This document shows positions 25,153 through 64,000 of a DNA stretch of 64,000 bases, in pieces; position 1 is the first letter of the stretch, and every line of letters starts with the position of its first letter. The notes beneath the pieces were generated by a model that was not told the DNA's origin, did no database searches, and worked only from the letters and a program-made list of their open reading frames with translations. The translations under genes and the position numbers were made by a program. Origin of the DNA: Escherichia coli. Its GTDB lineage: Bacteria; Pseudomonadota; Gammaproteobacteria; Enterobacterales; Enterobacteriaceae. Where the stretch lies: NCBI RefSeq assembly GCF_003790525.1, contig NZ_CP033635.1; one strand, given 5' to 3'.

Positions 25153-25305
25153 CTACTTCTTCGGTTCGTAAGCGAGAACAGCCTTAAACTCAATATTACG
25201 TTCCTTCACCGTAAACTCACACAGCGAGTCTCCGACCAGAAGCGTAAATCCCAGCACCGTCAAACACAGCACTATGACTGCCACAAGGGCATATTTCGTC
25301 AGCAT
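25153..25305 (-). CDS. hokE: Hok-family type I toxin (small membrane peptide)
   Basis: 50-aa peptide [50 protein letters not shown], typical Hok/Gef. The listed 88-aa ORF is an in-frame upstream extension. Confidence 0.85.
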
Positions 25306-31259: not shown

Positions 31260-34200
31260 TTATTTCCGTACCCGATGTCGGTGCAGCCACATCAGCTTAT
31301 ACGCCGCCGGGATAATAAACAGCGATAGCAAAGGCGCGGTGATCATGCCGCCAATCATCGGCGCGGCAATCCGGCTCATCACCTCTGAACCTGCTCCCGT
31401 TCCCCACAGAATCGGCAGCAGACCGGCGATAATCACCGCCACCGTCATCGCTTTCGGGCGCACGCGCAGGACCGCGCCGTGATACAACGCCTCATCCAGC
31501 TTCTGCTCGCTGAATGTTTGCGGATTATTCAACGACGGCTCGGCCTCTATGGCGTGACGTAAATACATCAGCATCACCACGCCAAATTCGGCGGCGACCC
31601 CGGCAAGGGCAATAAAACCGGTGCCCGTCGCCACGGAAAGATGAAAGCCCATCCACCACAGCAACCAGATGCCGCCCACCAGCGCAAACGGTACGCTGCT
31701 GATAATCAGCAACGCTTCGCCCACCCGACGGAACGCCAGATACAACAGCACGAAGATGATCATCAGCGTCATCGGCACCATCAGTTTCAGCTTATGGTTG
31801 GCGCGCTCCAGTAGCTCGAACTGCCCGGAGAATGCCACGCTGGTGCCCGGTTTTAACTGCACTTTTTCAGCTATCGCTTTTTGCAGATCGTGAACCACCG
31901 ACACCATGTCACGATCGCGGGCATCGATATAAATCCAGCTCGTCGGGCGCGCATTCTCGGTTTTCAGCATCGACGGTCCGGTAGAGACTTTAACGTCGGC
32001 CACGTCTGCCAGGGTGATTTGCTGCTTCATCGGCGTGAGGATCGGCAACTGGCGCAGTGCCTGCGGGCTATCGCGCCAGCTTTGCGGATAACGCAGATTA
32101 ATTGGATAACGAGCAATCCCTTCCACCGTTTCGCCAACCATCGCCCCGCCCACCGCAGATGTCACAAACAATTGCACATCCGCCACCGTCATACCGTAAC
32201 GCGCGGCTTTTTCACGGTTAATCTCAACGTTGATATAGCGCCCACCTTCCAGCCGCTCGGCAAGAGCAGAAGCTACGCCTGGCACCGTTCGCGCCACTTC
32301 TTCAATTTGCTCCGCCATCGTGTCGATATCCGCCAGCACAGTGCCGGAAACTTTAATGCCGATAGGGCTTTTAATGCCAGTCGAGAGCATATCGATACGG
32401 TTACGAATTGGCGGCACCCACAGATTCGCCAGCCCCGGCAGACGCACGGTGTTATCCAGTTCCTCAATGATTTTGTCCATCGTCATGCCTGGCCGCCACT
32501 GATCTTGTGGCTTAAGCTGGATAGTCGTTTCTACCATCTCCAGTGGAGCTGAATCGGTGGCGGTTTCCGCTTTCCCGGTTTTGCCAAATACCCGCGCCAC
32601 TTCCGGTACGCTCATAATCAGCTTGTCGGTTTTTTGCAGCATGCTCGCCGCCTCTGCTGCGGAAATCCCCGGCAGCGTCGATGGCATATACAACAAGTCG
32701 CCTTCATTGATCTGCGGTAAAAATTCCCCGCCAACTTTATTGAGCGGCCAGAGTACCGTCAGCACCGAAAGCGCTGCCACCAACAGCGTGGTTTTCGGCC
32801 AGTGCAGTACTTTCAGCAACAGCGGATGATAAACACGAATCAAAAAGCGATTGAGCGGGTTACTGCTTTCCGGCGGAATTTTGCCACGGATCCAGTAGCC
32901 CATCAGGATCGGGATCACTACGATCGCCAGTAGCGCCGCGCCCGCCATCGCATAGGTTTTGGTGAACGCCAGCGGGCCAAACAGACGACCTTCCTGCCCT
33001 TCCAGGGTGAAGATCGGGATAAACGACAGCGTGATAATCAGCAGACTGATAAACAGCGCCGGCCCCACTTCAACAGATGCATCGGTAATCACCTGCCAGC
33101 GCGTTTTATTATCCAGCGTGGCGTCAGGATGCTGGTGCTGCCACTCTTCCAGCCGTTTATGCGCATTCTCGATCATGACGATAGCGGCATCGACCATCGC
33201 CCCGACGGCAATCGCAATACCGCCCAGCGACATAATATTGGCGTTCAGTCCCTGAAAGTGCATGACAATAAAAGCAATACACAACCCCAGCGGCAACGAA
33301 ATAATCGCCACCAGCGCCGAGCGCACATGCCAGAGAAACAGCGCACAGACTACCGCCACCACAATAAACTCTTCCAGCAACTTGCCACTGAGGTTGTCAA
33401 TGGCGCGGTCAATGAGCTGGCTGCGATCGTATGTTGTAACTATCTCCACGCCTTCCGGCAGACTGCTTTTCAGCGTTTCCAGTTTGTCCTTCACGGCAGC
33501 GATCACTTCACGGGCGTTTTTGCCGGAACGCAGGATCACCACCCCGCCCGCCACTTCGCCTTCGCCGTTCAGTTCGGCAATGCCCCGGCGCATCTCCGGG
33601 CCAACCTGGACCTTCGCAACATCACGCAGATAAACGGGCACGCCATTTTCACTGGCTTTTAAAACGATGTGATTAAAGTCGTCGAGCGTTTGCAGATATC
33701 CGCTGGCGCGCACCATATATTCCGCTTCCGCCAGTTCGATCGACGAACCGCCCGCTTCCTGGTTTGAAGCATCCAGCGCGCTTTTTACTTCGGCGAGACT
33801 GATGCCATACTGCGCCAGGCGCTGAGGATCGATAACCACCTGATACTCTTTCACCACACCGCCCACCGACGCCACTTCCGCAACGTCAGGGATGGTTTTT
33901 AGCTCATATTTGAGAAACCAGTCCTGCAATGAGCGTAAATCGGCCAGATCGTGCTTACCGCTGCGATCTACCAGTGCATATTCATAGATCCAGCCAACGC
34001 CCGTGGCGTCTGGCCCCAGCTCGGCGCTGACTCCCGCAGGCAGCTTCCCCTGTACCTGATTGAGGTACTCCAGCACCCGCGAGCGCGCCCAGTACGGATC
34101 GGTGCCATCTTCAAAAATGACATACACATAAGAGTCGCCAAACTGCGAGAAACCGCGCACTGTCTTCGCGCCAGGTACCGACAACATGGTGGTGGTTAGC

Positions 34201-34403
34201 GGATAAGTCACCTGATTTTCAACGATTTGCGGTGCCTGACCGGGATAGCTGGTTTTAATAATCACCTGTACATCAGAGAGATCCGGCAGCGCATCCACTG
34301 GCGTGTTAATGATGGTCCAGGTGCCCCAGATGCTCAGAAACAACGCGCCCATCAGCACCAGAAAACGGTTCGCCACCGAGCGACGAATAATCCATTCAAT
34401 CAT
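31260..34403 (-). CDS. cusA: Cu(I)/Ag(I) efflux RND transporter
   Basis: 1047-aa RND pump starting [24 protein letters not shown]; recognised as CusA. Confidence 0.95.
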
Positions 34404-34414
34404 TGGTTATTCCC

Positions 34415-35638
34415 TCAATGCGCATGGGTAGCACTTTCAGAGCGCATCCGCTCCAGTGCGCCAGAAATATTGGCTTCAGAATCAATCAGGAACAGGCCGC
34501 TGGAAACCACCTTTTCACCTTCCGCCAGACCAGAGCGTAACGCGGTGACGCCTTGCGATGCCTGGAAAACGGCAACGCGTTTCGGTACAAAGCGCCCGTC
34601 AGCATCAACGGTAATCACCCGCTGTTCGTTGCCGGTATCAATCAGCGCCTGTGACGGAATGAGCAGCATCGGTTCGCTGGCGGTATTGAGTTGCAACCAG
34701 GCGTTCATGCCCGGTTTTAGCGCCTCGTCGGCGTTGTCGACTTCCAGACGCAGTTGTAGCGTGCGGGTCGCGGCATCCACGCCGGGTAGCAGGGTCCATT
34801 TGCGAATGGTGAGTGTTTTATCCGGTCGCGCCGGAACGGTGAGGGTAAACTGCGAGGCATCTTTCACCAGCCAGGCGATGGACTCCGGGATCGCAGCAGT
34901 GACCCACACCGGGTCCATACCCTGAATTTTCGCGACCACGTTATCTTTGGCGATATTCATTCCCGCGCGCAGATCAAACGCGGTGATCACGCCATCAATG
35001 GGCGCTTTGAGCGTAAAGCGAGTCTGGATTTTTTGCGTGGCGATCAGGCGGCGAATATCCGCCTCCGGCATTCCCGCCAGTCTCAGCCGCTCAAGAATGC
35101 CTTCAGTCTGGGTCGCCGTACCGCCGGTTTCGCGCAGCAGTAAATACTCACTCTGCGCTTCCACCCAGTCGGGAATGGTCAGGTCGAGAAGCGGTGTGCC
35201 CTTTTGTACTTTATCGCCCACGGTAAGCGGATACACCTTGTCGATAAACCCGGCAGCGCGAGCCTGCACAATGGCATACTGATACTCGTTGTAACTGACA
35301 TTCGCCGGGAAACTCTGGGCAAAAGTCAGCGGCCCGCGCGTGACGGTCGCCGTTTTCACCCCCAGATTCTGCGTCTGGGTCGGGTCAATGCGTACACCAG
35401 ACGCAGAACTCTCTTCATCGGCATATTTCGGCACCAGATCCATATCCATAAACGGCGATTTACCTGGTTTATCGAACCGCGTATTGGGATACATCGGGTC
35501 GTACCAGAATAAGATTTTACGTTCTGCGGTCGGCGTTTTTTCTGCGGGCGGTTCAGCCTTTGCAAACCAGGTAAAACCTGCCGCAGAAATAATACCGCCC
35601 GCGATCATGCTGCCGATAATAAGCGCGATTTTTTTCAT
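34415..35638 (-). CDS. cusB: Cu(I)/Ag(I) efflux membrane fusion protein
   Basis: 407-aa ORF; recognised as CusB. Confidence 0.95.
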   Translation of the reverse strand: MKKIALIIGSMIAGGIISAAGFTWFAKAEPPAEKTPTAERKILFWYDPMYPNTRFDKPGKSPFMDMDLVPKYADEESSASGVRIDPTQTQNLGVKTATVTRGPLTFAQSFPANVSYNEYQYAIVQARAAGFIDKVYPLTVGDKVQKGTPLLDLTIPDWVEAQSEYLLLRETGGTATQTEGILERLRLAGMPEADIRRLIATQKIQTRFTLKAPIDGVITAFDLRAGMNIAKDNVVAKIQGMDPVWVTAAIPESIAWLVKDASQFTLTVPARPDKTLTIRKWTLLPGVDAATRTLQLRLEVDNADEALKPGMNAWLQLNTASEPMLLIPSQALIDTGNEQRVITVDADGRFVPKRVAVFQASQGVTALRSGLAEGEKVVSSGLFLIDSEANISGALERMRSESATHAH

Positions 35639-35653
35639 CTCATTAAACCTGGG

Positions 35654-35986
35654 TTACTGGCTGACTTTAATATCCTGTAATAAAGAAAGGTTGCCCTGCT
35701 GGACAAAATTAAACGCCACTTTGTCGCCGGTTTTAATTTCGCTCATTTTCGTCTGCGGGGTGATGGTAAAGCGCATGGTCATCTCCGGCCAGTTCACGGC
35801 AGCAATCGGATCGTGATGGATGGTGATTTTTTTGCTTTCCAGATCAACACCTTTTACCACGCCAGTGGCGCTAATAACCTGTGGCTGTGCTTCGCTCATG
35901 GATTCATGATGATGTTCGTTAGCCTGGGCATTAAAGCCAATAACGGTAAACAGACTAAACATTGCGACTTGCAGTGCTTTTTTCAT
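35654..35986 (-). CDS. cusF: Periplasmic copper/silver metallochaperone
   Basis: 110-aa ORF with a signal peptide and a His-rich N-terminus; recognised as CusF. Confidence 0.93.
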   Translation of the reverse strand: MKKALQVAMFSLFTVIGFNAQANEHHHESMSEAQPQVISATGVVKGVDLESKKITIHHDPIAAVNWPEMTMRFTITPQTKMSEIKTGDKVAFNFVQQGNLSLLQDIKVSQ

Positions 35987-36009
35987 TTATTCTCTCCTGG
36001 AGTTAAAAA

Positions 36010-37392
36010 TTATTGCTGCCAACCGCCGCCTAAGGCGGTATATAAAGAAATTTCGTTAACCTGACGGGCATAATTCAGGTCAAGTAAAGTTTGTCGGGTT
36101 GCAAATAAAGAACGCTCGGCATCCAGCACTTCCAGATAACTTACTGCGCCGTGCTGATATAATGCCCGCGCCCGTTGCAAAGTAATTTTCAGCGATGCCA
36201 GATAACGCTGCTGGGCGCTGATTTGATCGTTCAGGCTTTGACGTAATGCCAGCGCATCTGCCACTTCTTTAAAGGCATTCTGGATTTTCTGTTCATAATT
36301 CACCACCGACTGCTGCTGGCGAATTTCGGCGATATCCAGATTGGCCTGGTTGCGTCCGGCATTAAAAATGGGGATCTCAATTTTGGGTATAAAATTCCAC
36401 ATCCCGCTGCTGGCGTTAAATAATGACGACAGATCGCTACTGGCGGTCGATATTCCGCTGGTCAGGCTGATAGACGGGAAAAATGCCGCGCGTGCAGCGC
36501 CAATATTGGCATTAGCCGCCATTAACGCGTGTTCAGCTTCCATAATATCAGGGCGCTGCAATAAGATTTGCGACGGCAAGCCCGCCGGTAATTTAACGCT
36601 TTGCAGGCTGTCGCTGTTTACTGTCTGCGCTTGCGGCAGCTTGCCGTAGCTTCCCAATAACAGTTGCAATGCATTATTCGCCTGCGCCAGTTCCCCCTGA
36701 CGTTTAGCGATGTCGCTGCGGGTACTTTCTATCACCCCGCGAGCCTGTTCTAGCGCCAGAACATTGCTGCTACCGGTCAACAGTTGTTTTTCGACAAATG
36801 CATATGACTGCTGATAATTACGCAGCGTTTCTTCGGCTATTTGCAATTGCGCATACGCCAGTTGCTGATTGAAATAGCTTTGCGCGACATTAGAAACCAG
36901 CAGAATATGCACCGCGCGCTGAGCTTCCTCAGTAGCTAAATAATTTTGACGCTCGGCTTCGCTCATGTTCTTTAAGCGCCCGAAAAAATCGAGGTCAAAG
37001 CTGGCGTTAAGGCCGGTCGAAAACTCCCGTGTCGTGGCGGTATTCCCTTTAAGATTACCGCTCCAGCTGCCGCTGCCCTCGCCATTGAGCTGTGGGTAGC
37101 GGTCGGCATCGGTCAGACGATATTGCGCCCGTGCCTCCTGCACTTTCAGCGCCGCCATGCGCAAATCCCGGTTATTCACCAACGCCTCGCTAATCAGCGT
37201 CTTCACCTGATTATCAACAAAAAAGGTGCGCCAGCCCGCGTTCTGGTAGTTATCTGCTGCGTTAACCAGGCCGTTCTGGCTGAGTGAGAACTGCTGCGGC
37301 ACGGGCATTGCCGGACGCTGATAATCCGGTGCCAGTGAACAACCGGTTAGCGCAAGGGCCACACAAAATGGCAGAAGTTTACAAGGAGACAT
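36010..37392 (-). CDS. cusC: Outer-membrane efflux channel (lipoprotein) of the Cus system
   Basis: ORF starting MSPCKLLPFCVALALTGCSLAPDYQRP with a lipobox (LTGC); recognised as CusC. Confidence 0.93.
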   Translation of the reverse strand: MSPCKLLPFCVALALTGCSLAPDYQRPAMPVPQQFSLSQNGLVNAADNYQNAGWRTFFVDNQVKTLISEALVNNRDLRMAALKVQEARAQYRLTDADRYPQLNGEGSGSWSGNLKGNTATTREFSTGLNASFDLDFFGRLKNMSEAERQNYLATEEAQRAVHILLVSNVAQSYFNQQLAYAQLQIAEETLRNYQQSYAFVEKQLLTGSSNVLALEQARGVIESTRSDIAKRQGELAQANNALQLLLGSYGKLPQAQTVNSDSLQSVKLPAGLPSQILLQRPDIMEAEHALMAANANIGAARAAFFPSISLTSGISTASSDLSSLFNASSGMWNFIPKIEIPIFNAGRNQANLDIAEIRQQQSVVNYEQKIQNAFKEVADALALRQSLNDQISAQQRYLASLKITLQRARALYQHGAVSYLEVLDAERSLFATRQTLLDLNYARQVNEISLYTALGGGWQQ

Positions 37393-37462
37393 AGGCTCAT
37401 AATTTCTGGTGATTTTATGCCGCCAACTTTACTCGCCAGGCTCTGATTTTCCGGTGACAGGA

Positions 37463-37484
37463 AAATGACAAAATTGTCATTTTG
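37463..37484. promoter_or_regulatory. CusR operator (perfect palindrome) in the divergent cusC / cusR promoter region
   Basis: AAAATGACAAAATTGTCATTTT is a perfect inverted repeat located between cusC and cusR. Confidence 0.7.
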
Positions 37485-37548
37485 CCAATAAGCGATTGCC
37501 ATCTGATCCCGCTACTCTAGAATTGCCCGGGCAACATGCGGAGGAAAT

Positions 37549-38232
37549 ATGAAACTGTTGATTGTCGAAGATGAAAAGAAAACCGGAGAATACTTGACCA
37601 AAGGGTTAACCGAAGCCGGTTTTGTGGTCGATTTGGCCGACAACGGGCTGAATGGCTACCATCTGGCGATGACCGGTGATTATGATCTGATAATCCTCGA
37701 TATTATGCTGCCGGACGTGAACGGCTGGGATATCGTGCGCATGTTGCGTTCCGCCAATAAGGGGATGCCGATTCTGTTGCTTACCGCGCTTGGCACCATT
37801 GAACATCGCGTCAAGGGGCTGGAGTTGGGGGCGGATGACTATCTGGTTAAGCCGTTCGCTTTTGCTGAACTGCTGGCGCGGGTGCGCACTCTACTGCGGC
37901 GCGGGGCGGCGGTGATTATCGAAAGTCAGTTTCAGGTTGCCGATCTGATGGTCGATCTCGTCAGCCGCAAAGTCACCCGTAGCGGCACGCGCATCACGTT
38001 GACCAGTAAAGAATTTACTTTGCTGGAGTTTTTCCTCCGCCATCAGGGTGAAGTGCTGCCCCGCTCGCTTATCGCCTCGCAGGTGTGGGACATGAATTTC
38101 GACAGCGACACTAACGCCATTGATGTGGCGGTGAAGCGGCTACGCGGCAAAATCGACAACGACTTTGAGCCGAAGCTGATTCAGACCGTGCGCGGCGTGG
38201 GCTATATGCTTGAGGTGCCGGATGGTCAGTAA
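37549..38232 (+). CDS. cusR: Copper-responsive two-component response regulator (OmpR family)
   Basis: 227-aa [28 protein letters not shown]; recognised as CusR. Confidence 0.95.
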
Positions 38233-39664
38233 GCCATTTCAGCGCCCGTTTTCGCTGGCAACCCGTCTGACCTTTTTTATCAGCCTGGCCACCATCGCGG
38301 CGTTTTTCGCCTTTGCATGGATCATGATCCACTCGGTAAAAGTGCATTTTGCCGAGCAGGATATTAATGATTTAAAAGAGATTAGCGCCACCCTTGAACG
38401 GGTACTTAATCACCCTGACGAAACGCAAGCCCGACGCTTAATGACGCTGGAAGATATCGTCAGTGGTTATTCCAACGTGTTGATTTCTCTGGTAGATAGC
38501 CACGGTAAAACGGTGTATCACTCCCCCGGTGCGCCGGATATCCGCGAGTTTGCACGTGATGCCATACCCGATAAAGACGCTCGGGGCGGCGAGGTGTATC
38601 TCCTTTCCGGCCCGACAATGATGATGCCAGGCCACGGTCACGGACATATGGAACACAGCAACTGGCGGATGATTAACTTGCCGGTTGGCCCGCTGGTGGA
38701 CGGCAAACCGATTTATACGCTCTACATCGCGCTGTCTATCGATTTTCATCTTCATTACATTAATGATTTGATGAATAAACTTATTATGACCGCATCGGTA
38801 ATCAGCATTCTGATCGTCTTTATCGTGCTGTTGGCGGTACATAAAGGTCACGCGCCGATCCGCAGCGTCAGCCGTCAAATCCAGAACATTACCTCGAAAG
38901 ATCTCGACGTTCGCCTCGATCCACAGACCGTGCCCATTGAACTCGAACAACTGGTGCTGTCGTTCAACCATATGATCGAGCGTATTGAGGATGTCTTTAC
39001 CCGCCAGTCCAATTTCTCAGCGGATATCGCCCACGAAATTCGTACACCAATTACGAATCTCATAACGCAAACGGAAATCGCCCTCAGCCAGTCGCGCAGC
39101 CAGAAGGAGCTGGAAGATGTGCTCTACTCTAATCTCGAAGAGCTGACGCGAATGGCGAAAATGGTCAGCGATATGTTGTTTCTCGCCCAGGCCGATAACA
39201 ACCAGTTAATCCCCGAAAAGAAAATGCTCAACCTGGCGGATGAAGTCGGCAAAGTGTTCGATTTTTTCGAGGCGTTAGCGGAAGATCGCGGCGTGGAGTT
39301 GCGGTTTGTTGGTGACGAGTGTCAGGTTGCGGGCGATCCGCTGATGTTGCGTCGGGCGTTAAGCAACCTACTTTCTAATGCCCTGCGTTATACGCCAACC
39401 GGAGAGACAATTGTCGTGCGCTGCCAGACGGTCGATCACCTGGTGCAAGTTACCGTCGAAAACCCTGGTACGCCCATTGCGCCTGAGCACTTACCGCGAT
39501 TGTTTGACCGTTTCTACCGCATTGATCCTTCCCGCCAGCGAAAAGGCGAAGGTAGCGGTATTGGCCTGGCGATAGTGAAATCGATTGTTGTCGCGCATAA
39601 AGGCACGGTTGCGGTAACGTCAGATGCGCGGGGAACAAGGTTTGTTATCATATTACCCGCTTAA
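38222..39664 (+). CDS. cusS: Copper/silver-sensing histidine kinase
   Basis: 480-aa protein starting [10 protein letters not shown]; overlaps the cusR 3' end by 11 nt. Confidence 0.93.
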
Positions 39665-39813
39665 TCCTTCAGCAAACGGCAACTTTTATAACCAGTGTAA
39701 AAATAACGTGCCGCAATAATCCTACCTATTAATGATAAAAAGCTGTCACAATTCATAAAAAACTTTAATATACGCCACCCTAAACATAACCAGCGTTAAT
39801 GTAAGGTTTTTGT

Positions 39814-42051
39814 GTGGACTGGCTTCTTGATGTTTTTGCTACCTGGCTCTACGGCTTAAAAGTAATCGCGATAACGTTAGCGGTCATCATGTTCATCAGC
39901 GGGCTGGACGATTTTTTTATTGATGTCGTCTACTGGGTACGCCGCATTAAACGCAAGTTGAGTGTTTATCGCCGCTACCCGCGAATGAGTTACCGCGAAC
40001 TGTATAAACCAGATGAAAAACCGTTAGCGATTATGGTTCCGGCGTGGAATGAAACGGGCGTCATCGGCAATATGGCCGAGCTGGCGGCGACCACGCTCGA
40101 CTACGAAAACTATCATATCTTTGTTGGCACCTACCCCAACGACCCCGATACTCAGCGTGATGTTGACGAAGTGTGCGCTCGCTTCCCGAACGTGCATAAG
40201 GTAGTCTGCGCGCGTCCTGGCCCCACCAGCAAAGCCGACTGTCTGAACAACGTGCTGGACGCCATCACCCAATTTGAACGTAGCGCCAATTTCGCTTTTG
40301 CTGGTTTTATTCTGCATGACGCCGAAGATGTGATTTCACCGATGGAATTGCGTCTGTTCAACTATCTGGTCGAGCGTAAAGATCTGATTCAGATCCCAGT
40401 GTATCCGTTCGAACGCGAATGGACGCACTTCACCAGCATGACTTACATTGATGAGTTTTCAGAACTGCATGGCAAAGATGTTCCGGTGCGTGAAGCCCTC
40501 GCCGGACAGGTGCCCAGCGCAGGCGTCGGCACCTGTTTCAGCCGCCGCGCCGTGACCGCTCTGTTAGCTGACGGTGACGGTATTGCTTTCGACGTGCAGA
40601 GTCTGACTGAAGATTACGATATTGGCTTCCGCCTGAAAGAAAAAGGTATGACGGAAATTTTTGTCCGTTTTCCGGTGGTGGACGAAGCCAAAGAACGCGA
40701 GCAGCGTAAATTTTTACAGCACGCACGGACGTCAAACATGATCTGCGTGCGCGAATATTTCCCCGATACCTTTTCGACTGCGGTTCGACAAAAATCTCGC
40801 TGGATCATCGGCATTGTTTTCCAGGGCTTTAAAACCCACAAATGGACCTCCAGCCTGACGCTGAACTACTTTCTCTGGCGCGACCGCAAAGGGGCAATCA
40901 GTAACTTTGTCAGCTTCCTCGCGATGCTGGTGATGATCCAGCTTTTGCTGTTACTGGCGTATGAAAGTTTGTGGCCCGATGCCTGGCATTTCCTTTCTAT
41001 TTTCAGCGGCAGCGCATGGTTAATGACCCTGCTGTGGCTAAACTTTGGTTTGATGGTTAACCGCATCGTGCAGCGGGTGATTTTTGTCACTGGCTACTAC
41101 GGTCTGACGCAGGGGCTGCTATCTGTCCTGCGTCTTTTCTGGGGTAACCTGATTAACTTCATGGCCAACTGGCGCGCGTTAAAACAGGTACTTCAACACG
41201 GCGATCCGCGTCGAGTGGCGTGGGATAAAACAACGCATGACTTCCCCAGCGTGACTGGCGATACCCGCTCGTTGCGCCCGTTAGGTCAAATCCTGCTGGA
41301 AAATCAGGTCATCACTGAAGAACAACTCGATACAGCACTGCGTAATCGCGTCGAAGGTCTACGCCTGGGCGGTTCAATGCTGATGCAGGGGCTGATTAGC
41401 GCCGAGCAACTGGCACAGGCGCTGGCAGAGCAAAACGGCGTGGCGTGGGAATCCATCGATGCCTGGCAGATCCCTTCCTCGCTGATTGCCGAAATGCCGG
41501 CCTCCGTGGCGCTGCATTATGCGGTACTGCCGCTGCGTCTGGACAATGATGAGTTAATTGTCGGCAGTGAAGATGGTATTGACCCGGTTTCGCTGGCGGC
41601 CCTGACGCGTAAAGTCGGACGCAAAGTGCGTTACGTCATTGTTCTGCGGGGACAAATTGTCACCGGATTACGCCACTGGTATGCACGCCGACGCGGTCAC
41701 GATCCGCGGGCAATGTTGTACAATGCAGTTCAGCATCAGTGGCTCACGGAACAGCAGGCCGGTGAAATCTGGCGGCAATATGTGCCGCATCAGTTCCTGT
41801 TCGCCGAAATACTGACCACGCTCGGTCATATTAATCGTTCAGCAATTAACGTGTTGTTATTGCGCCATGAACGCAGTTCTCTGCCGCTCGGCAAGTTTTT
41901 GGTCACCGAAGGCGTTATCAGCCAGGAAACGTTGGATCGCGTCCTGACAATTCAACGCGAATTACAAGTTTCGATGCAATCACTATTACTCAAAGCAGGT
42001 TTAAACACAGAAAAGGTTGCGCAACTGGAGTCCGAAAATGAAGGAGAATAA
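39814..42051 (+). CDS. nfrB: Inner-membrane glycosyltransferase NfrB (phage N4 adsorption protein B; c-di-GMP-binding)
   Basis: 745-aa ORF with a GTG start, an N-terminal membrane/GT2 region and a C-terminal soluble domain; matches remembered NfrB. Confidence 0.93.
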   Translation: MDWLLDVFATWLYGLKVIAITLAVIMFISGLDDFFIDVVYWVRRIKRKLSVYRRYPRMSYRELYKPDEKPLAIMVPAWNETGVIGNMAELAATTLDYENYHIFVGTYPNDPDTQRDVDEVCARFPNVHKVVCARPGPTSKADCLNNVLDAITQFERSANFAFAGFILHDAEDVISPMELRLFNYLVERKDLIQIPVYPFEREWTHFTSMTYIDEFSELHGKDVPVREALAGQVPSAGVGTCFSRRAVTALLADGDGIAFDVQSLTEDYDIGFRLKEKGMTEIFVRFPVVDEAKEREQRKFLQHARTSNMICVREYFPDTFSTAVRQKSRWIIGIVFQGFKTHKWTSSLTLNYFLWRDRKGAISNFVSFLAMLVMIQLLLLLAYESLWPDAWHFLSIFSGSAWLMTLLWLNFGLMVNRIVQRVIFVTGYYGLTQGLLSVLRLFWGNLINFMANWRALKQVLQHGDPRRVAWDKTTHDFPSVTGDTRSLRPLGQILLENQVITEEQLDTALRNRVEGLRLGGSMLMQGLISAEQLAQALAEQNGVAWESIDAWQIPSSLIAEMPASVALHYAVLPLRLDNDELIVGSEDGIDPVSLAALTRKVGRKVRYVIVLRGQIVTGLRHWYARRRGHDPRAMLYNAVQHQWLTEQQAGEIWRQYVPHQFLFAEILTTLGHINRSAINVLLLRHERSSLPLGKFLVTEGVISQETLDRVLTIQRELQVSMQSLLLKAGLNTEKVAQLESENEGE

Positions 42052-45010
42052 CCTTAATCGCGTCATCGGATGGTCTGGTTTACTGCTGACGTCTTTATTG
42101 AGTACCAGCGCACTCGCAGACAATATCGGCACCAGCGCAGAAGAGCTGGGGCTGAGCGATTATCGCCATTTTGTTATTTATCCCCGTCTCGACAAGGCGC
42201 TGAAGGCACAGAAAAATAACGACGAAGCAACCGCCATCCGCGAATTTGAATATATACACCAACAGGTGCCGGATAATATTCCACTAACTTTATACCTTGC
42301 GGAAGCCTATCGCCATTTTGGTCATGATGACCGGGCGCGGCTGTTGCTTGAGGATCAACTGAAACGTCACCCAGGAGATGCCCGACTTGAGCGCAGTCTG
42401 GCGGCTATTCCAGTTGAAGTGAAAAGCGTTACGACTGTTGAAGAACTGCTTGCCCAGCAAAAAGCGTGCGACGCTGCGCCGACCCTGCGTTGTCGCAGTG
42501 AAGTTGGGCAGAATGCCCTGCGGCTGGCACAATTACCTGTCGCCAGAGCGCAACTGAACGATGCGACGTTTGCTGCATCGCCGGAAGGAAAAACGCTGCG
42601 AACCGATCTGCTGCAACGCGCAATCTACCTGAAACAATGGTCCCAGGCAGATACGCTATACAATGAAGCACGCCAGCAGAACACATTAAGCGCGGCAGAA
42701 CGCCGCCAGTGGTTTGATGTGCTTCTTGCCGGGCAGCTGGACGATCGGATCCTGGCGCTGCAATCACAGGGGATCTTCACCGATCCGCAGTCATATATTA
42801 CTTACGCGACCGCGCTGGCTTATCGTGACGAAAAAGCACGCCTCCAGCGTTATCTCATTGAAAATAAGCCGCTGTTTACCACGGACGCACAAGAGAAAAG
42901 TTGGCTCTATCTGTTATCTAAATACAGCGCCAACCCCGTTCCGGCGTTGGCGAATTATACGGTACAGTTTGCCGATAACCGCCAGTATGTTGTTGGCGCG
43001 ACGCTACCGGTGCTGTTAAAAGAAGGTCAGTACGACGCAGCGCAAAAACTGCTCGCCACCCTCCCCGCCAATGAAATGCTTGAGGAGCGTTATACCGTTA
43101 GCGTAGCGACCCATAACAAGGCTGAAGCTCTGCGTCTGGCACGATTGCTGTATCAGCAAGAACCGGCAAATCTTACCCGCCTGGATCAACTGACCTGGCA
43201 ACTGATGCAGAACGAGCAGTCACGCGAAGCTGCCGATTTATTGCTGCAACGCTATCCTTTCCAGGGCGATGCGCGTGTCAGCCAGACGTTAATGGCGCGA
43301 CTGGCGTCTCTGCTGGAAAGTCATCCTTACCTGGCAACGCCGGCGAAGGTGGCGATTTTATCGAAACCCTTACCGCTGGCGGAGCAACGTCAGTGGCAAA
43401 GTCAGTTGCCGGGTATTGCAGATAATTGCCCGGCTATAGTTCGCTTGCTGGGCGATATGTCGCCTTCCTACGATGCCGCCGCCTGGAACCGTCTGGCAAA
43501 GTGTTATCGGGACACGCTACCCGGTGTGGCGTTGTATGCATGGCTTCAGGCCGAACAACGACAACCGAACGCCTGGCAACATCGTGCGGTAGCCTATCAG
43601 GCGTATCAGGTTGAGGACTACGCCACCGCACTGGCGGCCTGGCAGAAAATCAGTCTTCACGACATGAGCAATGAGGATCTGCTTGCTGCTGCCAATACCG
43701 CCCAGGCGGCAGGAAATGGCGCAACTCGCGATCGCTGGCTTCAGCAGGCAGAACAACGTGGGCTGGGAAACAATGCCCTCTACTGGTGGCTGCATGCGCA
43801 ACGTTACATTCCTGGTCAGCCGGAACTCGCACTGAACGATCTCACGCGCTCAATCAATATTGCGCCTTCTGCCAACGCTTACGTTGCGCGGGCGACAATT
43901 TATCGCCAACGTCATAATGTCCCGGCGGCGGTGAGTGATTTGCGCGCCGCGCTGGAACTGGAACCGAATAATAGCAACACCCAGGCAGCGCTCGGTTACG
44001 CCTTGTGGGATAGCGGTGATATCGCACAGTCGCGGGAAATGCTCGAACAGGCGCATAAAGGGCTACCGGACGATCCGGCACTTATCCGACAACTGGCCTA
44101 CGTGAACCAGCGTCTGGATGACATGCCTGCGACGCAGCACTACGCCCGGCTGGTGATTGATGACATTGATAATCAGGCGCTGATAACCCCACTGACCCCA
44201 GAGCAAAATCAGCAACGCTTCAATTTCCGCCGTCTGCATGAGGAGGTCGGTCGCCGCTGGACGTTCAGTTTCGATTCTTCTATCGGCTTGCGTTCCGGCG
44301 CAATGAGTACCGCTAACAATAATGTCGGCGGCGCAGCGCCAGGGAAAAGCTATCGTAGCTACGGGCAACTGGAAGCCGAGTATCGCATCGGACGCAATAT
44401 GCTGCTGGAAGGCGACCTGCTCTCGGTTTACAGCCGTGTATTTGCCGATACCGGAGAAAACGGGGTGATGATGCCGGTGAAAAATCCGATGTCCGGCACC
44501 GGTCTGCGCTGGAAGCCGCTGCGCGATCAGATCTTTTTCCTCGCCGTCGAACAGCAGTTGCCGCTGAACGGCCAAAATGGTGCATCCGATACCATGCTGC
44601 GCGCCAGCGCCTCATTCTTTAATGGCGGCAAATACAGCGACGAATGGCACCCGAACGGTTCAGGCTGGTTTGCCCAAAACCTGTACCTCGATGCAGCGCA
44701 ATATATCCGCCAGGATATTCAGGCGTGGACGGCAGATTATCGCGTCAGCTGGCATCAGAAGGTAGCTAACGGACAGACTATTGAGCCTTACGCTCACGTT
44801 CAGGACAACGGCTATCGTGATAAAGGCACTCAGGGCGCGCAGCTTGGCGGTGTCGGGGTCCGCTGGAATATCTGGACCGGCGAGACGCACTACGACGCCT
44901 GGCCGCACAAAGTCAGTCTCGGCGTCGAGTATCAACATACCTTTAAGGCGATTAATCAACGTAACGGAGAGCGCAACAATGCGTTTCTCACCATTGGAGT
45001 GCACTGGTAA
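42038..45010 (+). CDS. nfrA: Outer-membrane TPR-rich protein NfrA (phage N4 adsorption protein A)
   Basis: 990-aa protein starting MKENNLNRVIGWSGLLLTSLLSTSALA (signal peptide); overlaps the nfrB 3' end by 14 nt. Confidence 0.93.
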   Translation: MKENNLNRVIGWSGLLLTSLLSTSALADNIGTSAEELGLSDYRHFVIYPRLDKALKAQKNNDEATAIREFEYIHQQVPDNIPLTLYLAEAYRHFGHDDRARLLLEDQLKRHPGDARLERSLAAIPVEVKSVTTVEELLAQQKACDAAPTLRCRSEVGQNALRLAQLPVARAQLNDATFAASPEGKTLRTDLLQRAIYLKQWSQADTLYNEARQQNTLSAAERRQWFDVLLAGQLDDRILALQSQGIFTDPQSYITYATALAYRDEKARLQRYLIENKPLFTTDAQEKSWLYLLSKYSANPVPALANYTVQFADNRQYVVGATLPVLLKEGQYDAAQKLLATLPANEMLEERYTVSVATHNKAEALRLARLLYQQEPANLTRLDQLTWQLMQNEQSREAADLLLQRYPFQGDARVSQTLMARLASLLESHPYLATPAKVAILSKPLPLAEQRQWQSQLPGIADNCPAIVRLLGDMSPSYDAAAWNRLAKCYRDTLPGVALYAWLQAEQRQPNAWQHRAVAYQAYQVEDYATALAAWQKISLHDMSNEDLLAAANTAQAAGNGATRDRWLQQAEQRGLGNNALYWWLHAQRYIPGQPELALNDLTRSINIAPSANAYVARATIYRQRHNVPAAVSDLRAALELEPNNSNTQAALGYALWDSGDIAQSREMLEQAHKGLPDDPALIRQLAYVNQRLDDMPATQHYARLVIDDIDNQALITPLTPEQNQQRFNFRRLHEEVGRRWTFSFDSSIGLRSGAMSTANNNVGGAAPGKSYRSYGQLEAEYRIGRNMLLEGDLLSVYSRVFADTGENGVMMPVKNPMSGTGLRWKPLRDQIFFLAVEQQLPLNGQNGASDTMLRASASFFNGGKYSDEWHPNGSGWFAQNLYLDAAQYIRQDIQAWTADYRVSWHQKVANGQTIEPYAHVQDNGYRDKGTQGAQLGGVGVRWNIWTGETHYDAWPHKVSLGVEYQHTFKAINQRNGERNNAFLTIGVHW

Positions 45011-45901
45011 ATGCGTAAGTTCATTTTCGTATTGCTGACACTGCTTTTGGTCAGCCCTTTTTCCTTTGCGATGAAAGGTATTATCTGGCAACCACAAAAC
45101 CGTGATAGTCAGGTTACCGATACCCAGTGGCAGGGGCTGATGAGTCAGTTACGTTTGCAAGGCTTCGATACCCTGGTTTTGCAATGGACTCGTTACGGCG
45201 ATGCATTCACCCAGCCAGAACAGCGCGCGTTATTGTTTAAGCGTGCCGCAGCTGCGCAACAGGCTGGCCTGAAGCTGATTGTCGGGCTGAATGCCGATCC
45301 GGAATTTTTTATGCACCAGAAACAGTCGTCTGCAGCGCTGGAAAGCTATCTTAACCGCCTGCTGGCTGCCGATCTCCAGCAAGCCAGATTATGGAGCGCC
45401 GTACCTGGCGTAACGCCGGATGGCTGGTACATCAGCGCGGAAATTGACGACCTGAACTGGCGCAGCGAAGCCGCCCGTCAGCCTTTGCTAACATGGTTAA
45501 ACAACGCGCAGCGGTTGATTAGCGATGTTTCAGCAAAACCGGTTTATATCAGTAGTTTTTTCGCCGGAAACATGTCGCCCGATGGCTATCGCCAACTGCT
45601 GGAACACGTTAAAGCAACCGGCGTTAATGTCTGGGTACAGGATGGCAGCGGCGTGGATAAACTGACCGCTGAACAGCGTGAACGCTATCTACAGGCCAGC
45701 GCCGATTGCCAAAGCTCCGCCCCAGCAAGCGGCATTGTTTATGAACTGTTTGTCGCCGGCAAAGGCAAAACCTTTACAGCGAAACCGAAACCGGACGCAG
45801 AAATTGCCTCGCTGTTAGCGAAACGTTCCTCTTGCGGTAAAGACACGCTCTATTTCTCTCTGCGCTATTTGCCCGTCGCGCACGGCATTCTCGAGTATTA
45901 A
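45011..45901 (+). CDS. ybcH: Periplasmic protein YbcH, third member of the nfrB-nfrA-ybcH unit
   Basis: 296-aa ORF with a signal peptide; its ATG directly abuts the nfrA TAA stop. Confidence 0.9.
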   Translation: MRKFIFVLLTLLLVSPFSFAMKGIIWQPQNRDSQVTDTQWQGLMSQLRLQGFDTLVLQWTRYGDAFTQPEQRALLFKRAAAAQQAGLKLIVGLNADPEFFMHQKQSSAALESYLNRLLAADLQQARLWSAVPGVTPDGWYISAEIDDLNWRSEAARQPLLTWLNNAQRLISDVSAKPVYISSFFAGNMSPDGYRQLLEHVKATGVNVWVQDGSGVDKLTAEQRERYLQASADCQSSAPASGIVYELFVAGKGKTFTAKPKPDAEIASLLAKRSSCGKDTLYFSLRYLPVAHGILEY

Positions 45902-46083
45902 ATCTCCTCCAGGTAAGTCGGGTACGACCTGGCTTACCTCTTTCGCTCTCGTCAGAATTCCATCAAGATTAATTGCTAAAAAGCGTGCTAAAGAAAGAAG
46001 ATCGTTATCGGCGAACGGGCCGATCACTCATGCAGGAAGCATAGATCCTTTGAGCGGAGTTTCTGATATCTGAGGAGTGCGAA

Positions 46084-46845
46084 ATGCAATTGAGCAGCAG
46101 TGAACCTTGCGTGGTGATCCTGACCGAAAAAGAGGTAGAGGTAAGCGTCAATAACCATGCTACGTTTACCCTTCCGAAAAACTACCTGGCCGCCTTCGCG
46201 TGCAACAATAACGTCATTGAACTCTCAACGTTAAATCACGTATTAATCACCCACATCAACCGTAACATCATCAACGATTATCTGTTGTTTTTAAATAAGA
46301 ACTTAACCTGTATAAAGCCCTGGTCGCGGCTGGCAACTCCGGTTATCGCTTGTCATAGCCGTACACCGGAAGTGTTCCGGCTAGCCGCCAACCACAGCAA
46401 GCAGCAACCCAGCAAACCCTGCGAAGCGGAGTTGACGCGCGCATTGCTTTTTACCGTATTGTCTAACTTTCTTGAGCAATCGCGGTTTATTGCCCTACTG
46501 ATGTATATCTTACGCAGCAGCGTCCGCGACAGCGTCTGCCGCATTATTCAAAGCGATATTCAGCATTACTGGAATCTGCGAATTGTCGCCAGTTCGCTAT
46601 GTTTAAGCCCCAGCCTGCTCAAAAAGAAATTAAAAAACGAAAATACCAGCTATAGCCAGATTGTCACAGAGTGTCGTATGCGTTACGCCGTACAGATGTT
46701 ATTGATGGATAACAAAAATATCACTCAGGTAGCGCAATTATGTGGCTATAGCAGCACGTCGTACTTTATCTCTGTTTTTAAGGCGTTTTACGGCCTGACA
46801 CCGTTGAATTATCTCGCCAAACAGCGACAAAAAGTGATGTGGTGA
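46084..46845 (+). CDS. envY: AraC-family transcriptional regulator of porin thermoregulation
   Basis: 253-aa ORF MQLSSSEPCVVILTEKEVEV with a C-terminal AraC helix-turn-helix; recognised as EnvY. Confidence 0.9.
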   Translation: MQLSSSEPCVVILTEKEVEVSVNNHATFTLPKNYLAAFACNNNVIELSTLNHVLITHINRNIINDYLLFLNKNLTCIKPWSRLATPVIACHSRTPEVFRLAANHSKQQPSKPCEAELTRALLFTVLSNFLEQSRFIALLMYILRSSVRDSVCRIIQSDIQHYWNLRIVASSLCLSPSLLKKKLKNENTSYSQIVTECRMRYAVQMLLMDNKNITQVAQLCGYSSTSYFISVFKAFYGLTPLNYLAKQRQKVMW

Positions 46846-46890
46846 AGGGCAAAGCGGAAACGGATAAGACGGGGATAAATGAAGAAGAAA

Positions 46891-58594: not shown

Positions 58595-59104
58595 ATGTCT
58601 TCCCGCAATAATCCGGCGCGTGTCGCCATCGTGATGGGGTCCAAAAGCGACTGGGCTACCATGCAGTTCGCCGCCGAAATCTTCGAAATCCTGAATGTCC
58701 CGCACCACGTTGAAGTGGTTTCTGCTCACCGCACCCCCGACAAACTGTTCAGCTTCGCCGAAAGCGCCGAAGAAAACGGTTATCAGGTGATTATTGCGGG
58801 CGCAGGCGGCGCGGCGCACCTGCCAGGTATGATTGCCGCCAAAACGCTGGTGCCGGTGCTGGGCGTGCCAGTACAGAGCGCCGCACTGAGCGGTGTCGAT
58901 AGTCTCTACTCCATCGTACAAATGCCGCGCGGCATTCCGGTGGGTACGCTGGCGATTGGTAAAGCTGGCGCGGCAAACGCGGCGTTACTGGCAGCACAAA
59001 TTCTTGCGACTCATGATAAAGAACTGCACCAGCGTCTGAATGACTGGCGCAAAGCCCAGACTGACGAAGTGCTGGAAAACCCGGACCCGCGAGGTGCGGC
59101 ATGA
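58595..59104 (+). CDS. purE: N5-carboxyaminoimidazole ribonucleotide mutase
   Basis: 169-aa protein starting [20 protein letters not shown], with AGGAG upstream; the listed ORF has a 9-codon extension. Confidence 0.95.
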
Positions 59105-60168
59105 AACAGGTTTGCGTCCTCGGTAACGGGCAGTTAGGCCGTATGCTGCGTCAGGCAGGCGAACCGTTAGGCATTGCTGTCTGGCCAGTCGGGCTGGACG
59201 CTGAACCGGCGGCGGTGCCTTTTCAACAAAGTGTGATTACCGCTGAGATCGAACGCTGGCCGGAAACCGCATTAACCCGCGAGCTGGCGCGCCATCCGGC
59301 CTTTGTGAACCGCGATGTGTTCCCGATTATTGCTGACCGTCTGACTCAGAAGCAGCTTTTCGATAAGCTCCACCTGCCGACCGCACCGTGGCAGTTACTT
59401 GCCGATCGCAGCGAGTGGCCTGCGGTGTTTGATCGTTTAGGTGAGCTGGCGATTGTTAAGCGTCGCACTGGTGGCTATGACGGACGCGGTCAATGGCGTT
59501 TACGCGCCGATGAAACCGAACAGTTACCGACTGAATGCTACGGCGAATGTATTGTCGAGCAGGGCATAAACTTCTCTGGTGAAGTGTCGCTGGTTGGCGC
59601 GCGCGGCTTTGATGGTAGTACCGTGTTTTATCCGCTGACGCATAACCTGCATCAGGACGGTATTTTGCGCACCAGCGTCGCTTTCCCGCAGGCCAACGCG
59701 CAGCAGCAGGCGCAGGCCGAAGAGATGCTGTCGGCGATTATGCAGGAGCTGGGCTATGTGGGCGTGATGGCGATGGAGTGTTTTGTCACCCCACAAGGTC
59801 TGCTGATCAACGAACTGGCTCCGCGTGTGCATAACAGTGGGCACTGGACGCAAAACGGTGCCAGCATCAGCCAGTTTGAGCTGCATCTGCGGGCGATTAC
59901 CGATCTGCCGTTACCACAACCGGTGGTGAATAGTCCGTCGGTGATGATCAACCTGATTGGTAGCGATGTGAATTATGACTGGCTGAAACTGCCGCTGGTG
60001 CATCTGCACTGGTACGACAAAGAAGTCCGTCCGGGGCGTAAAGTGGGGCATTTAAATTTGACCGACAGCGACACATCGCGTCTGACCGCGACGCTGGAAG
60101 CCTTAATCCCGCTGCTGCCGCCAGAATATGCTAGCGGCGTGATTTGGGCGCAGAGCAAGTTCAGTTAA
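59101..60168 (+). CDS. purK: N5-carboxyaminoimidazole ribonucleotide synthetase (ATP-grasp)
   Basis: 355-aa ORF; its ATG overlaps the purE stop (ATGA). Confidence 0.95.
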
Positions 60169-60185
60169 TTGATGCTCATTTTCTT

Positions 60186-60370
60186 GCCGCATGCGGCGTG
60201 AACGCCTTATCCGGCCTACCGTTCCAACACCGACTGTAGGCCTGATAAGATGCGCCAGCATCGCATCAGGCATGGTGTGCCGATTGCCGGATGCGGCGTG
60301 AACGCCTTATCCGGCCTACCGTTCCGACACCGCCTGTAGACCTGATAAGACGCGCCAGCATCGCATCAGG
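60186..60370. repeat. BIME: four REP palindromes in alternating orientation downstream of purK
   Basis: REP units at about 60186-60219, 60235-60270, 60286-60319 and 60335-60370, i.e. an approximately 100-bp unit repeated twice (GCCGGATGCGGCGTGAACGCCTTATCCGGCCTAC and GTAGGCCTGATAAG..CATCAGGC). Confidence 0.75.
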
Positions 60371-60400
60371 CTAGATGTGCCAATTGCCTGGTGCCCATCA

Positions 60401-61294
60401 CTACAGCGAAATACAGGTCCCCGCTTCGCCCGCCAGCGTCTCTTCAATTCGCGATAACGCCCCAATCCACGCGGGTTTACCACGGCTTCTGACATAGCCA
60501 CTCACTGCCGTTACCTTCGGCCCCATCGAACCATCGGCTTTGGCAAGTGGCGCTAACTCATCCGGTGTGGCATGGCGAATGGCACGTTGCTGCGGCGTTC
60601 CCCAGTTTTCATATACCGCATCAGCATCGGTGAGGATCACCAGTCCATCGGCATTAATCTGCTCGGCGAGCAACGCAGCGGCGAGATCTTTATCAATCAC
60701 TGCTTCACTCCCTACTCCGTCATCCGTCACAGGCACACCGCCGCCGCCACTGCAAATCACCACATGCCCCTCTTTGAGCAACAACTCGATGGCTTCGCTG
60801 TCGAGAATATTACGCGGTTGCGGAGACGCCACCACCCGGCGCAAATATTTACCATCACGTTTCATCTGCCAGCCGTAAGCAGCTTCCAGTGCCTCTTGTT
60901 CTTCTGGCTGATAAACCGGACCGATAAACTTCTCTGGCTGCAAAAACGCCGGATCATCAGGCGAAACCTCAATGCGCGTCAGCACCGTCGTGACAGGCGG
61001 CATCTGCGGCTGTGCGCTCAAGCTCTGCACCAGCATATAGCCAATCATCCCCTGGCTTTCCGCCACCAGCACATCCAGCGGATACGGTTCTACCTCTTTC
61101 CACGCCAGATTCTGTAACGCCAACAGCCCCACCTGTGGCCCGTTGCCGTGAACAATCGCCAGCCGATAAGAACGGGCCAGGCGCGCCAGCGCGGGTACAG
61201 CACTGGCAATATTGCGATATTGATTTTCTGCCGTCAGCGCCTCACCGCGCTGGAGTAAGGCGTTGCCCCCAAGAGCCACAACCAGTGTTTTCAT
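60401..61294 (-). CDS. ybcF: Carbamate kinase-like protein (ArcC family)
   Basis: 297-aa protein starting [18 protein letters not shown] (amino-acid kinase fold); the listed ORF has a 38-codon extension overlapping ylbF. Confidence 0.88.
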
Positions 61295-62106
61295 GGTTTT
61301 CCTTGTAATAATTGTTGGCCAAGCCAGAACCCCAGCAGCGTATCGGCCCCTGACGTATGCCCCAGCGCCAGCAGCGAATCGATCGCCGCTGCGGTACGTT
61401 TCGGGCAACTCAGAGCATGAACAAAGTGCAGGAGTGGCGAGGCGAAATATCCTTGCGCGGCATAACGTAAATAACTGACGCTCACCGCTGTGGTAACGAG
61501 TTGAAGATTGTCGGAACAGGCAAAAAACGGGCGACCGGAGCGCGCATCTAAAGCGCCATAATACCAGGCCGCCAGCAGCATTCCGCTCAGCGTGTCATCA
61601 TGACTTGGCGTTAATCCTGGGCCTTTACCCAGCCAGTGCCGCCAGTCGGTCTTAACGCCATTGAGCGCGGCCTGAAAACAGTGACGAAACTGGCGTAACT
61701 CAGCAGGCAGCGGATCGCTTGCCGCCATCGCCAGTGGCCCGAAAAGCCCGGTTTCCTCCGCGCGTTGCATCCATGCAGCTGCAAGCGGTTGAGGATGCGC
61801 AGGCGGCGTAATACGCAGCAAACAATAACGCTGTGGCTGTTTAACCGTGAAACGTCCGAGGCGAATGCCTTGAGCCACAACCTGTGGTCGTTCATTGCCG
61901 CATAATCCACCGCATAACGCATCGAATTGCGCGCGGCGAAGCACCCATCCTCCGGGGCCGAAACCACTCCCCTGACGATGCAGCGTTAACAGTTCGCCGC
62001 TTTCCGTCATCAGGTTAATCGCCCGCCGCCAGATGCCCGCTAACCGCCAGGACTGGCAATAATTCGGTGCACTACGGCTGGCAAGCAGAGGATGGATGAT
62101 CGTCAT
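61291..62106 (-). CDS. ylbF: DUF2877 protein YlbF
   Basis: 271-aa protein starting MTIIHPLL; its stop overlaps the ybcF start (ATGA on the coding strand). Confidence 0.85.
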
Positions 62107-62116
62107 TGCGCGTTCC

Positions 62117-63376
62117 TCAACCAATACCCATGCTTTCAGCCAGAGCTTCCAGCGCCTGTTCAAAGCACGCCAGCGGTGCCCGCACGGTGCCTGCACCAAT
62201 CTGCCCGATCCCCGCCTCTTTATGGGCGATACCCGTATTGATGAGTGGTGTAATGCCGGTTTCTACCACGCGACGAATATCCAGCCCCAGACACGCGCCC
62301 TGGAAATCCCAGCCAGGGATCTGCAACTGCATATTGCGTTCAAGGAAGATTTCTGCCATCTCTTCAGATACTGCTCTGGCTGCTTCCATACCACCCGCAC
62401 CGACAAAGCGTGTTACGCCAGGGGCGGCGATCATTGCCGCACCACCGATACCAAAGGTTTCGGTAATCGCGCTATCGCCCATATCCGGGTTCGCCTGCTC
62501 CTGCGAGAAGCCGGTGAAAAACAGACCTTGCGGAGTGTTTACAGGCGCAGTAAACCAGCGCTCGCCCAGCCCACTTACCCGAATCCCGAACATATTGCCG
62601 TTGCGGGTCATAGCCGTAACGATGCTGCCCGCGCGGATCATCGCGCCTGCATCCATCGCCGCCTTGCAATAGGCCATCGCGAGGTTGAGGAAGAACTGAT
62701 CGGTCACGCTGAGGAAATCCATCACTTCCGCGATGTGCTGTTTATCGTGATTGAGGCGAGCAATTTGTGGGGCCAGCGCGCGCATCAACAGTGCTGAGGA
62801 TGCAATGTTGCGCTGATGGAACTCATCGCCCATGGTAATGCCCTGTGCCATCATCGCGGTGAGATCGATACCGCGCTCCATGCGCCCCAGCGCCGCGCTT
62901 AATACTGGCATTAACACATCGCGCATCCAGCGATGGCGAGTCAGGACATCTTCGCCGTAAGCGCCAAAACGCATCACTTTGCCGATACCTTCGTTGAGGT
63001 TGCAGTAGGCCCGGTTGCCGTCGGTCACGTTCTCGACCACCAGCATCGGCATACTGGCAGAAGTAATGCCACCCATTGGCCCGACGGCATTCACATGGTG
63101 ACAAGGAATGAAGTTCACTTCCCCCTGCTCCAGCATCGCCAGCGCCTGCGCTTCATCTTTCGCCCAGCCTTCGAACAGACATGCGCCCACGCACGCCCCT
63201 TTCATGGGTCCGGTCATCTCCTGCCAGCGCATTGGCGGCCCGGCGTGAAGCAGTGTTTTGCCCTTGTTTAGTTCGCTGATAAGTGAAGAAGCCGGTTGCA
63301 CATCCAGCCAGTGTGGACGAGCGCGACGAATTTGTTCGATAACCGCAGCATTGGCTTGCGCCACTGATGTAAACAT
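62117..63376 (-). CDS. ylbE: DUF1116 protein YlbE (intact reading frame)
   Basis: Uninterrupted 419-aa ORF starting [26 protein letters not shown]. Confidence 0.85.
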
Positions 63377-63385
63377 GGGAACCCC

Positions 63386-64000
63386 TTATTGCAAACGTTC
63401 TAATAAACGAGCCAGTTTTTTATTGCCGCCGGCGACTGGCGACCATTGGTAATGCACAACCGGTTTGCTGGCGCTTTGTAGCTCCAGCGCAAAGCTGCGT
63501 AATCCGATGTTAATCACGGCGACGTTTTCCAGTAATGACGGTGTGTGTTGCTGTGTGGCAGGCGAGAGCGGATGAATTAACGCCGCCGCCAGCAAGGTGG
63601 CTTCCGGTAGCGAACTCACTACCGCGATCCCCGCATCTTCCAACGTGGCGATTTGCTGCGCGCGGCATTGCGGGTCACGTTCAGTGCCTGTCACCGTGGC
63701 AATGGCATACAGTGGTTGATTGTCTGAACGCGCGGCACAGGCTTTTTGCCAGGCGCTCACCAGCGAGGCGGCAGGATCGGCGGTCGCACCGAAGCCAATC
63801 ACGACATCAAGCAGCAACACGCGCACTTGCGGTTTAGCGCCGAGATCGGCAATTAACAGGTTGCGTAAGGTCGGGTCGATCATCGGATGGGGACGCCCGA
63901 CGGTGTAAAAATCATCGCCCAGGTCGAGGATCTGATGTCCGTCGGCGTCCAGCATCATGCCATGTTGATGGGTATCGTCGGCTTCCACGCCAAGGTGTCC
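63386..64000 (-). CDS. fdrA: FdrA (acyl-CoA synthetase/succinyl-CoA synthetase-like) protein, C-terminal part; gene continues beyond the window end
   Basis: Frame open from the window end (64000) to the stop at 63386-63388; the 200-aa visible segment matches the remembered FdrA C-terminus. Confidence 0.8.
   Translation of the reverse strand, partial: GHLGVEADDTHQHGMMLDADGHQILDLGDDFYTVGRPHPMIDPTLRNLLIADLGAKPQVRVLLLDVVIGFGATADPAASLVSAWQKACAARSDNQPLYAIATVTGTERDPQCRAQQIATLEDAGIAVVSSLPEATLLAAALIHPLSPATQQHTPSLLENVAVINIGLRSFALELQSASKPVVHYQWSPVAGGNKKLARLLERLQ

Follow-up and report, generated by a model that had tools for sequence, protein, structure and literature searches.

An uninterrupted ylbE frame in Escherichia coli raises the question of whether it is an unusual, possibly functional copy of a gene that is broken in K-12, or simply the normal state of the gene. 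We analysed such a frame in a 64,000-nt stretch of E. coli DNA (the window; positions are counted from its first letter). A preliminary description of this DNA had reported an open 419-codon ylbE frame at 62117-63376 and had taken ylbE of strain MG1655 to be a frameshifted pseudogene. Our analysis indicates, with a probability of about 95%, that 62117..63376 on the minus strand is an ordinary intact allG (ylbE), the second of the four genes of allFGHK, from an E. coli closely related to strain SMS-3-5. Publications already describe the gene, the operon, its function in the enzyme and how the K-12 "frameshift" came about, and there is nothing unusual in the copy in the window.

The allG reading frame and its MG1655 counterpart

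The ORF listing of the window recovered the frame at the same coordinates and placed it on the minus strand, which the preliminary description had not given. The CDS runs without a break from an ATG start through 419 codons to a TGA stop, and the predicted product is an oxamate carbamoyltransferase (OXTCase) subunit. Past the upstream in-frame stop, the earliest possible start is the ATG at 63376. A Shine-Dalgarno-like AAGGGG motif lies 5' of this ATG, and the stop codon of fdrA is located 9 nt upstream of it. The translated sequence matched Pfam PF06545 with an E value of 1.7e-97 and 325.6 bits (cut-off 27), and the profile was covered completely (positions 1-215 of 215) by residues 87-302. 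PF06545 is the former DUF1116, the family to which the frame had been assigned at the outset, and its current Pfam name is "AllG, oxamate carbamoyltransferase subunit". The Pfam OTCace_N / OTCace fold, with its carbamoyl-phosphate-binding and Asp/Orn-binding domains, was not found in AllG, and the NCBIfam profile search gave no match for either AllG or AllH.

In the MG1655 record NC_000913.3, ylbE (b4572) is annotated at 548357..549616 as a 1260-nt CDS encoding YP_009029994.1, and it carries no pseudogene flag. The view of the MG1655 gene as a frameshifted pseudogene is thus outdated. The genes of the window and of MG1655 are both 1260 nt long and have no internal stop; they differ by 48 substitutions (96.2% nucleotide identity), 43 of which lie in codons with an unchanged amino acid, and the dN/dS was 0.032 (Nei-Gojobori). 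An indel between the two was sought by an ungapped, position-by-position comparison, and none was found. The alignment proposed in the preliminary description for locating an indel therefore has nothing to locate in MG1655, since the indel exists only relative to strain W3110. The preliminary description had also considered that the MG1655 gene might turn out to be intact and identical to the window copy; it is intact though not identical, and in substance this refutes the supposed contrast with MG1655. The copy in the window is not a rare functional form of the gene.

At the protein level, 414 of the 419 residues (98.8%) were identical without gaps, and the changes from the window to MG1655 were K38E, M81I, N209D, F344Y and G355S. 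The MG1655 AllG has the same length of 419 amino acids, and its gene likewise stands between allF and allH, is followed by allK and has purK, purE, lpxH, ppiB and cysS in its neighbourhood. It differs by these five conservative or variable-site changes, from which a functional difference is not expected. One could argue that the five substitutions make the AllG of the window functionally different from that of K-12, e.g. in kinetics or complex stability, and K38 is indeed unique to the window sequence among 25 aligned homologs. However, each of the five sites falls in a variable column of this alignment, in which identity goes down to 45%, and the other four residues of the window recur in homologs. 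The low dN/dS also speaks against a functional divergence. Furthermore, SMS-3-5 and at least 23 further complete genomes carry exactly the ylbE DNA of the window (100% identity), so the allele is found unchanged in at least 24. We consider a functional difference between the two proteins very unlikely, and take the copy in the window as an ordinary allG.

The five-G run and the K-12 "frameshift"

The site of the historical frameshift is a homopolymer of five G at 63121..63125 (minus strand; gene nt 252-256). The window and version 3 of the MG1655 sequence, where the run occupies 548608-548612, both carry GCAGGGGGAAG at this run. In the W3110 record NC_007779.1, ylbE is listed with 1259 nt and as "frameshifted". 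Comparison of the W3110 gene with that of MG1655 version 3 showed only two differences, namely a silent G/A at nt 114 and a run at nt 252-256 that is one G shorter. When one G was removed in silico, the frame reached a stop at codon 87, and an open remainder of 344 codons was left in another frame, which explains the old "C-terminal fragment" annotation. The legacy pseudogene allele (U00096.2, W3110) thus lies at the same locus, and its frame ends at codon 87 with four G as opposed to the five G of the window. Neither the G deletion nor the stop at codon 87 is present in the window, whereas the W3110 record has GGGG.

The two W3110 differences are exactly the "mutations" that have been reported against the old reference (table in PMC5460176; PMC4404585), and both reported ylbE sites convert to the new coordinates by one common offset of 776. 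For NCM3722, the ylbE change was described as one that "restored an intact ancestral gene" (Lyons et al., PMC3045373). EcoGene 3.0 stated that errors in U00096.2 had been confirmed and that the correction was due in U00096.3 (PMC3531124), and the frameshift was attributed to a sequence error by both CanOE (PMC3364942) and EcoGene (PMC3531124). An error in the old reference that was corrected in U00096.3 is the view of the literature (PMC3364942, PMC3531124, PMC4404585, PMC3045373).

We surveyed ylbE in 5,426 complete E. coli genomes. The gene was found in 5,420 of them, and at least 80% of it was present in 5,417. The integrity of the gene was estimated from these coverage statistics and from a sample of 60 evenly spaced records rather than by translating all 5,420 matches; in this sample, 59 of the 60 records gave a gap-free match of exactly 1260 nt. 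The 1260-nt gene is also present in DH5alpha, DH1, C600, J53, NCM3722, NCTC86 and many independently sequenced MG1655 derivatives. When the W3110 allele was used as the query, the 60 best-matching records contained four with 100% identity over 1259 nt (W3110, CIT, LIM and CAR; 4 of 5,420). The near-universal presence of a full-length gene indicates that the open frame is the species-wide norm and that the four-G state is essentially confined to legacy records; the frequency of ylbE pseudogenes among the 5,420 genomes is expected to lie well under 1-2%. Separately, the ylbE of AR_0085 (NZ_CP029741.1, 3803131..3803569) is disrupted: only query nt 822-1260 (35%) match, adjoining fdrA, so that this strain belongs to the very few with a complete genome in which the ylbE locus is genuinely disrupted.

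These results bear on the reading from which the question arose, i.e. that MG1655 ylbE is frameshifted and non-functional and that the window holds an unusual intact, possibly functional copy. The "frameshifted" flag that the W3110 RefSeq record still attaches to its 1259-nt ylbE would agree with it, as would studies that mapped reads to the old reference and listed a ylbE pseudogene "repaired" by +G (PMC5460176, PMC3045373). However, the CDS in NC_000913.3 is intact, nearly all E. coli carry the full-length gene and only 4 of 5,420 match the frameshifted allele, and the frameshift has been ascribed to a sequence error (PMC3364942, PMC3531124). In addition, MG1655 wild type produces oxamate and MG1655 DNA was the source for cloning the active enzyme, according to the data given in PMC11326118 that are described below, so MG1655 is not ylbE-defective. 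A broken MG1655 gene is hence extremely improbable.

Homopolymer runs are classic sites of slipped-strand frameshifts. The five-G run could accordingly be a real slippage hotspot that switches allG off and on, with the four-G state in W3110, CIT, LIM and CAR as biological variation, and an identical 1259-nt allele is indeed common to these four records. However, for phase variation five G make a short run, and the ylbE coordinates of the four records are the same or nearly so (547581/547582), as would be expected of a putative legacy inheritance, e.g. through reference-guided assembly. Moreover, the 60 best-matching records include no further K-12 derivative with four G, and in the evenly spaced sample the match measures exactly 1260 nt in all records but one. 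We therefore regard a slippage switch as very unlikely.

The K-12 "pseudogene" is most likely a one-base undercount of the five-G run in U00096.2, with no biological loss; this conclusion is based on secondary citations and on the record survey. The W3110 RefSeq sequence (2582..3840 of the extracted locus) and those of CIT, LIM and CAR (NZ_CP026026-CP026028) retain the 1259-nt, four-G ylbE, which probably goes back to a legacy sequence or to reference-guided assembly and does not reflect real biology. Caution is warranted, as annotation based on U00096.2 or W3110 still spreads a spurious ylbE pseudogene, and resequencing studies based on the old reference list the "repair" of ylbE as an evolved mutation (e.g. 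PMC5460176).

The allFGHK operon and its surroundings

Upstream of allG, the 3' part of allF (fdrA) occupies 63386..64000 (minus strand) and comprises the last 204 codons and the stop, as the gene is cut at the window end. This portion matched Pfam PF00549 (CoA-ligase) and NCBIfam NF004760 (FdrA) at profile positions 357-555 of 555, and the SMS-3-5 annotation agrees. The first 351 codons of allF and the allF promoter fall beyond position 64000. Downstream, allH (ylbF) lies at 61291..62106 (minus strand; 271 codons), as indicated by a match to Pfam PF11392 (AllH, 102.6 bits) and by the SMS-3-5 annotation (locus positions 1895-2710). Its ATG is located 10 nt past the allG stop, with the junction TGAGGAACGCGCAATG. 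It is followed by allK (ybcF), encoding the catabolic carbamate kinase, at 60401..61294 (minus strand; 297 codons), which was identified by NCBIfam NF006926 (615 bits, cut-off 416) and by annotation, and whose start overlaps the allH stop by 4 nt (ATGA). The longer frames for ylbF (302 amino acids) and ybcF (335 amino acids) were rejected, as both are mere mechanical extensions to an upstream TTG.

On the minus strand, the four genes allF-allG-allH-allK thus follow one another head to tail, the first two junctions measuring 9 nt and 10 nt and the third being a 4-nt overlap, consistent with the narrow spacing typical of a translationally coupled operon. The order fdrA-ylbE-ylbF-ybcF given in the preliminary description is borne out by the Pfam and NCBIfam domains and by the SMS-3-5 annotation. 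When 60000-64000 was scanned for promoter and terminator consensus sequences, there was no promoter-like site and a single terminator-like site, which lies within ybcF, and neither count exceeded that expected from shuffled sequence; the absence of promoter-like sites in this range fits genes that are internal to an operon. The four genes were reported by RT-PCR to form a single transcript, and YbcF was reported to be a catabolic carbamate kinase with enzyme activity in K-12 (PMC9843812). Under anaerobiosis with allantoin, AllS and ArcA act as activators of the operon (PMC12535856). In the SMS-3-5 record, which is identical to the window over 32001-64000, allE-allC-allD lie just past the window end.

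On the other side of the operon, the end of allK and the convergent purK are separated by a REP/BIME-type repeat spacer at 60169..60400, made of tandem palindromic units (GCCTGATGCGA...CTTATCAGGCCTACA and GTAGGCCGGATAAGGCG). An Rfam naRNA4 match (RF02564, 83 bits) was found within it at 60239..60316 (minus strand). Compared to the 194 nt of MG1655, the spacer of the window, with 232 nt, is 38 nt longer.

Positions 32001..64000 of the window correspond to the reverse complement of SMS-3-5 NC_010498.1 at 571601..603600 with 0 mismatches. The possibility that the whole window is SMS-3-5 sequence was rejected, since the left half contains an extra 1,336-bp IS4-family element beside hokE and 3 SNPs. 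These differences indicate that the strain of the window is a close relative of SMS-3-5. The closest matches of the left half were strains 702/18 and EC332.

The extra element lies at 23795..25130 and is flanked by a 12-bp direct repeat, and it is absent at the corresponding SMS-3-5 site. It is annotated elsewhere as "IS4-like element IS421 family transposase" and is of the IS186 type. Its longest ORF encodes 316 amino acids (24010..24960, plus strand), and 2,220 of the 5,426 E. coli genomes carry the element, in a median of 3 copies. Directly beside the insertion, hokE (25153..25305, minus strand) is intact, with 50 codons within an 88-amino-acid ORF. In SMS-3-5, a short ORF annotated as "hypothetical protein, frameshifted; internal stop" overlaps hokE (about 25274..25542 of the window), which is the usual hok/mok-type arrangement. 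Past the right end of the window, ybbY of the SMS-3-5 allantoin cluster, a putative uracil/xanthine family purine transporter gene (1..1608 of the extracted locus), is split by IS1.

Function of AllFGH and AllK

The preliminary description had referred to a recent report linking this run of genes to oxamate transcarbamylase in anaerobic allantoin catabolism. This report is Kim & Kim 2024 (PMC11326118), which assigns this activity, the step that splits oxalurate, to fdrA-ylbE-ylbF, renamed allFGH. MG1655 wild type formed 17.7 mM oxamate from 19.5 mM allantoin, and the deletion mutants of allF, allG and allH formed 0, 0 and 1.2 mM, respectively. In the triple mutant, only the allFGH plasmid gave full rescue (37.5 vs 38.3 mM, from 40 mM allantoin; Table 3), while allFG and allGH reached 7% and 16% of the oxamate made by the wild type. 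The allFGH genes were amplified from MG1655 DNA, with allG given as 1,260 bp and 419 amino acids. His-AllF (62 kDa), untagged AllG (46 kDa) and AllH-His (31 kDa) were co-purified as an active preparation, which formed oxalurate from oxamate and carbamoyl phosphate in an Mg2+-dependent reaction with an optimum at pH 9. The KM values were 1.3 mM for carbamoyl phosphate and 36.9 mM for oxamate.

When allG was supplied on a plasmid to the allG deletion mutant, oxamate was still zero (Table 1 of PMC11326118), presumably due to polarity on allH. The tables considered here contain no construct with allF and allH only. That AllG itself is required is indicated mainly by its being part of the active preparation and by the failure of two-gene combinations to rescue completely, and this requirement is not cleanly separated from polarity.

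In MG1655, AllF, AllG and AllH together catalyze the reversible conversion of oxalurate and Pi to carbamoyl phosphate and oxamate, with Mg2+ and an optimum near pH 9, and AllK then uses carbamoyl phosphate and ADP to yield ATP, NH3 and CO2. The 98.8% identity, the location of the changes in variable columns, the strong purifying selection and the intact operon partners lead us to infer that the AllG of the window is an OXTCase subunit. Judged from its sequence and from the partners that are intact within the window (allF only in part), it would do the same job as AllG of K-12. Speculatively, AllG may contribute substrate-binding or catalytic residues from among its invariant His/Cys/Asp/Glu, which include H44, C92, H93, D184, E185, H187 and H385, in a complex with the succinyl-CoA-synthetase-like AllF.

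The only structure resembling the AllG fold is PDB 3CLQ from Enterococcus faecalis V583 (about 40-45% identity), an entry from structural genomics for a conserved protein with no assigned function or ligand. An analogous transfer of the carbamoyl group to or from carbamoyl phosphate is carried out by the classical transcarbamylases of the ATCase/OTCase fold (PyrB, ArgI/ArgF, YgeW). How the three subunits of AllFGH transfer the carbamoyl group without the transcarbamylase fold is a question for the family as a whole, which the copy in the window does not advance.
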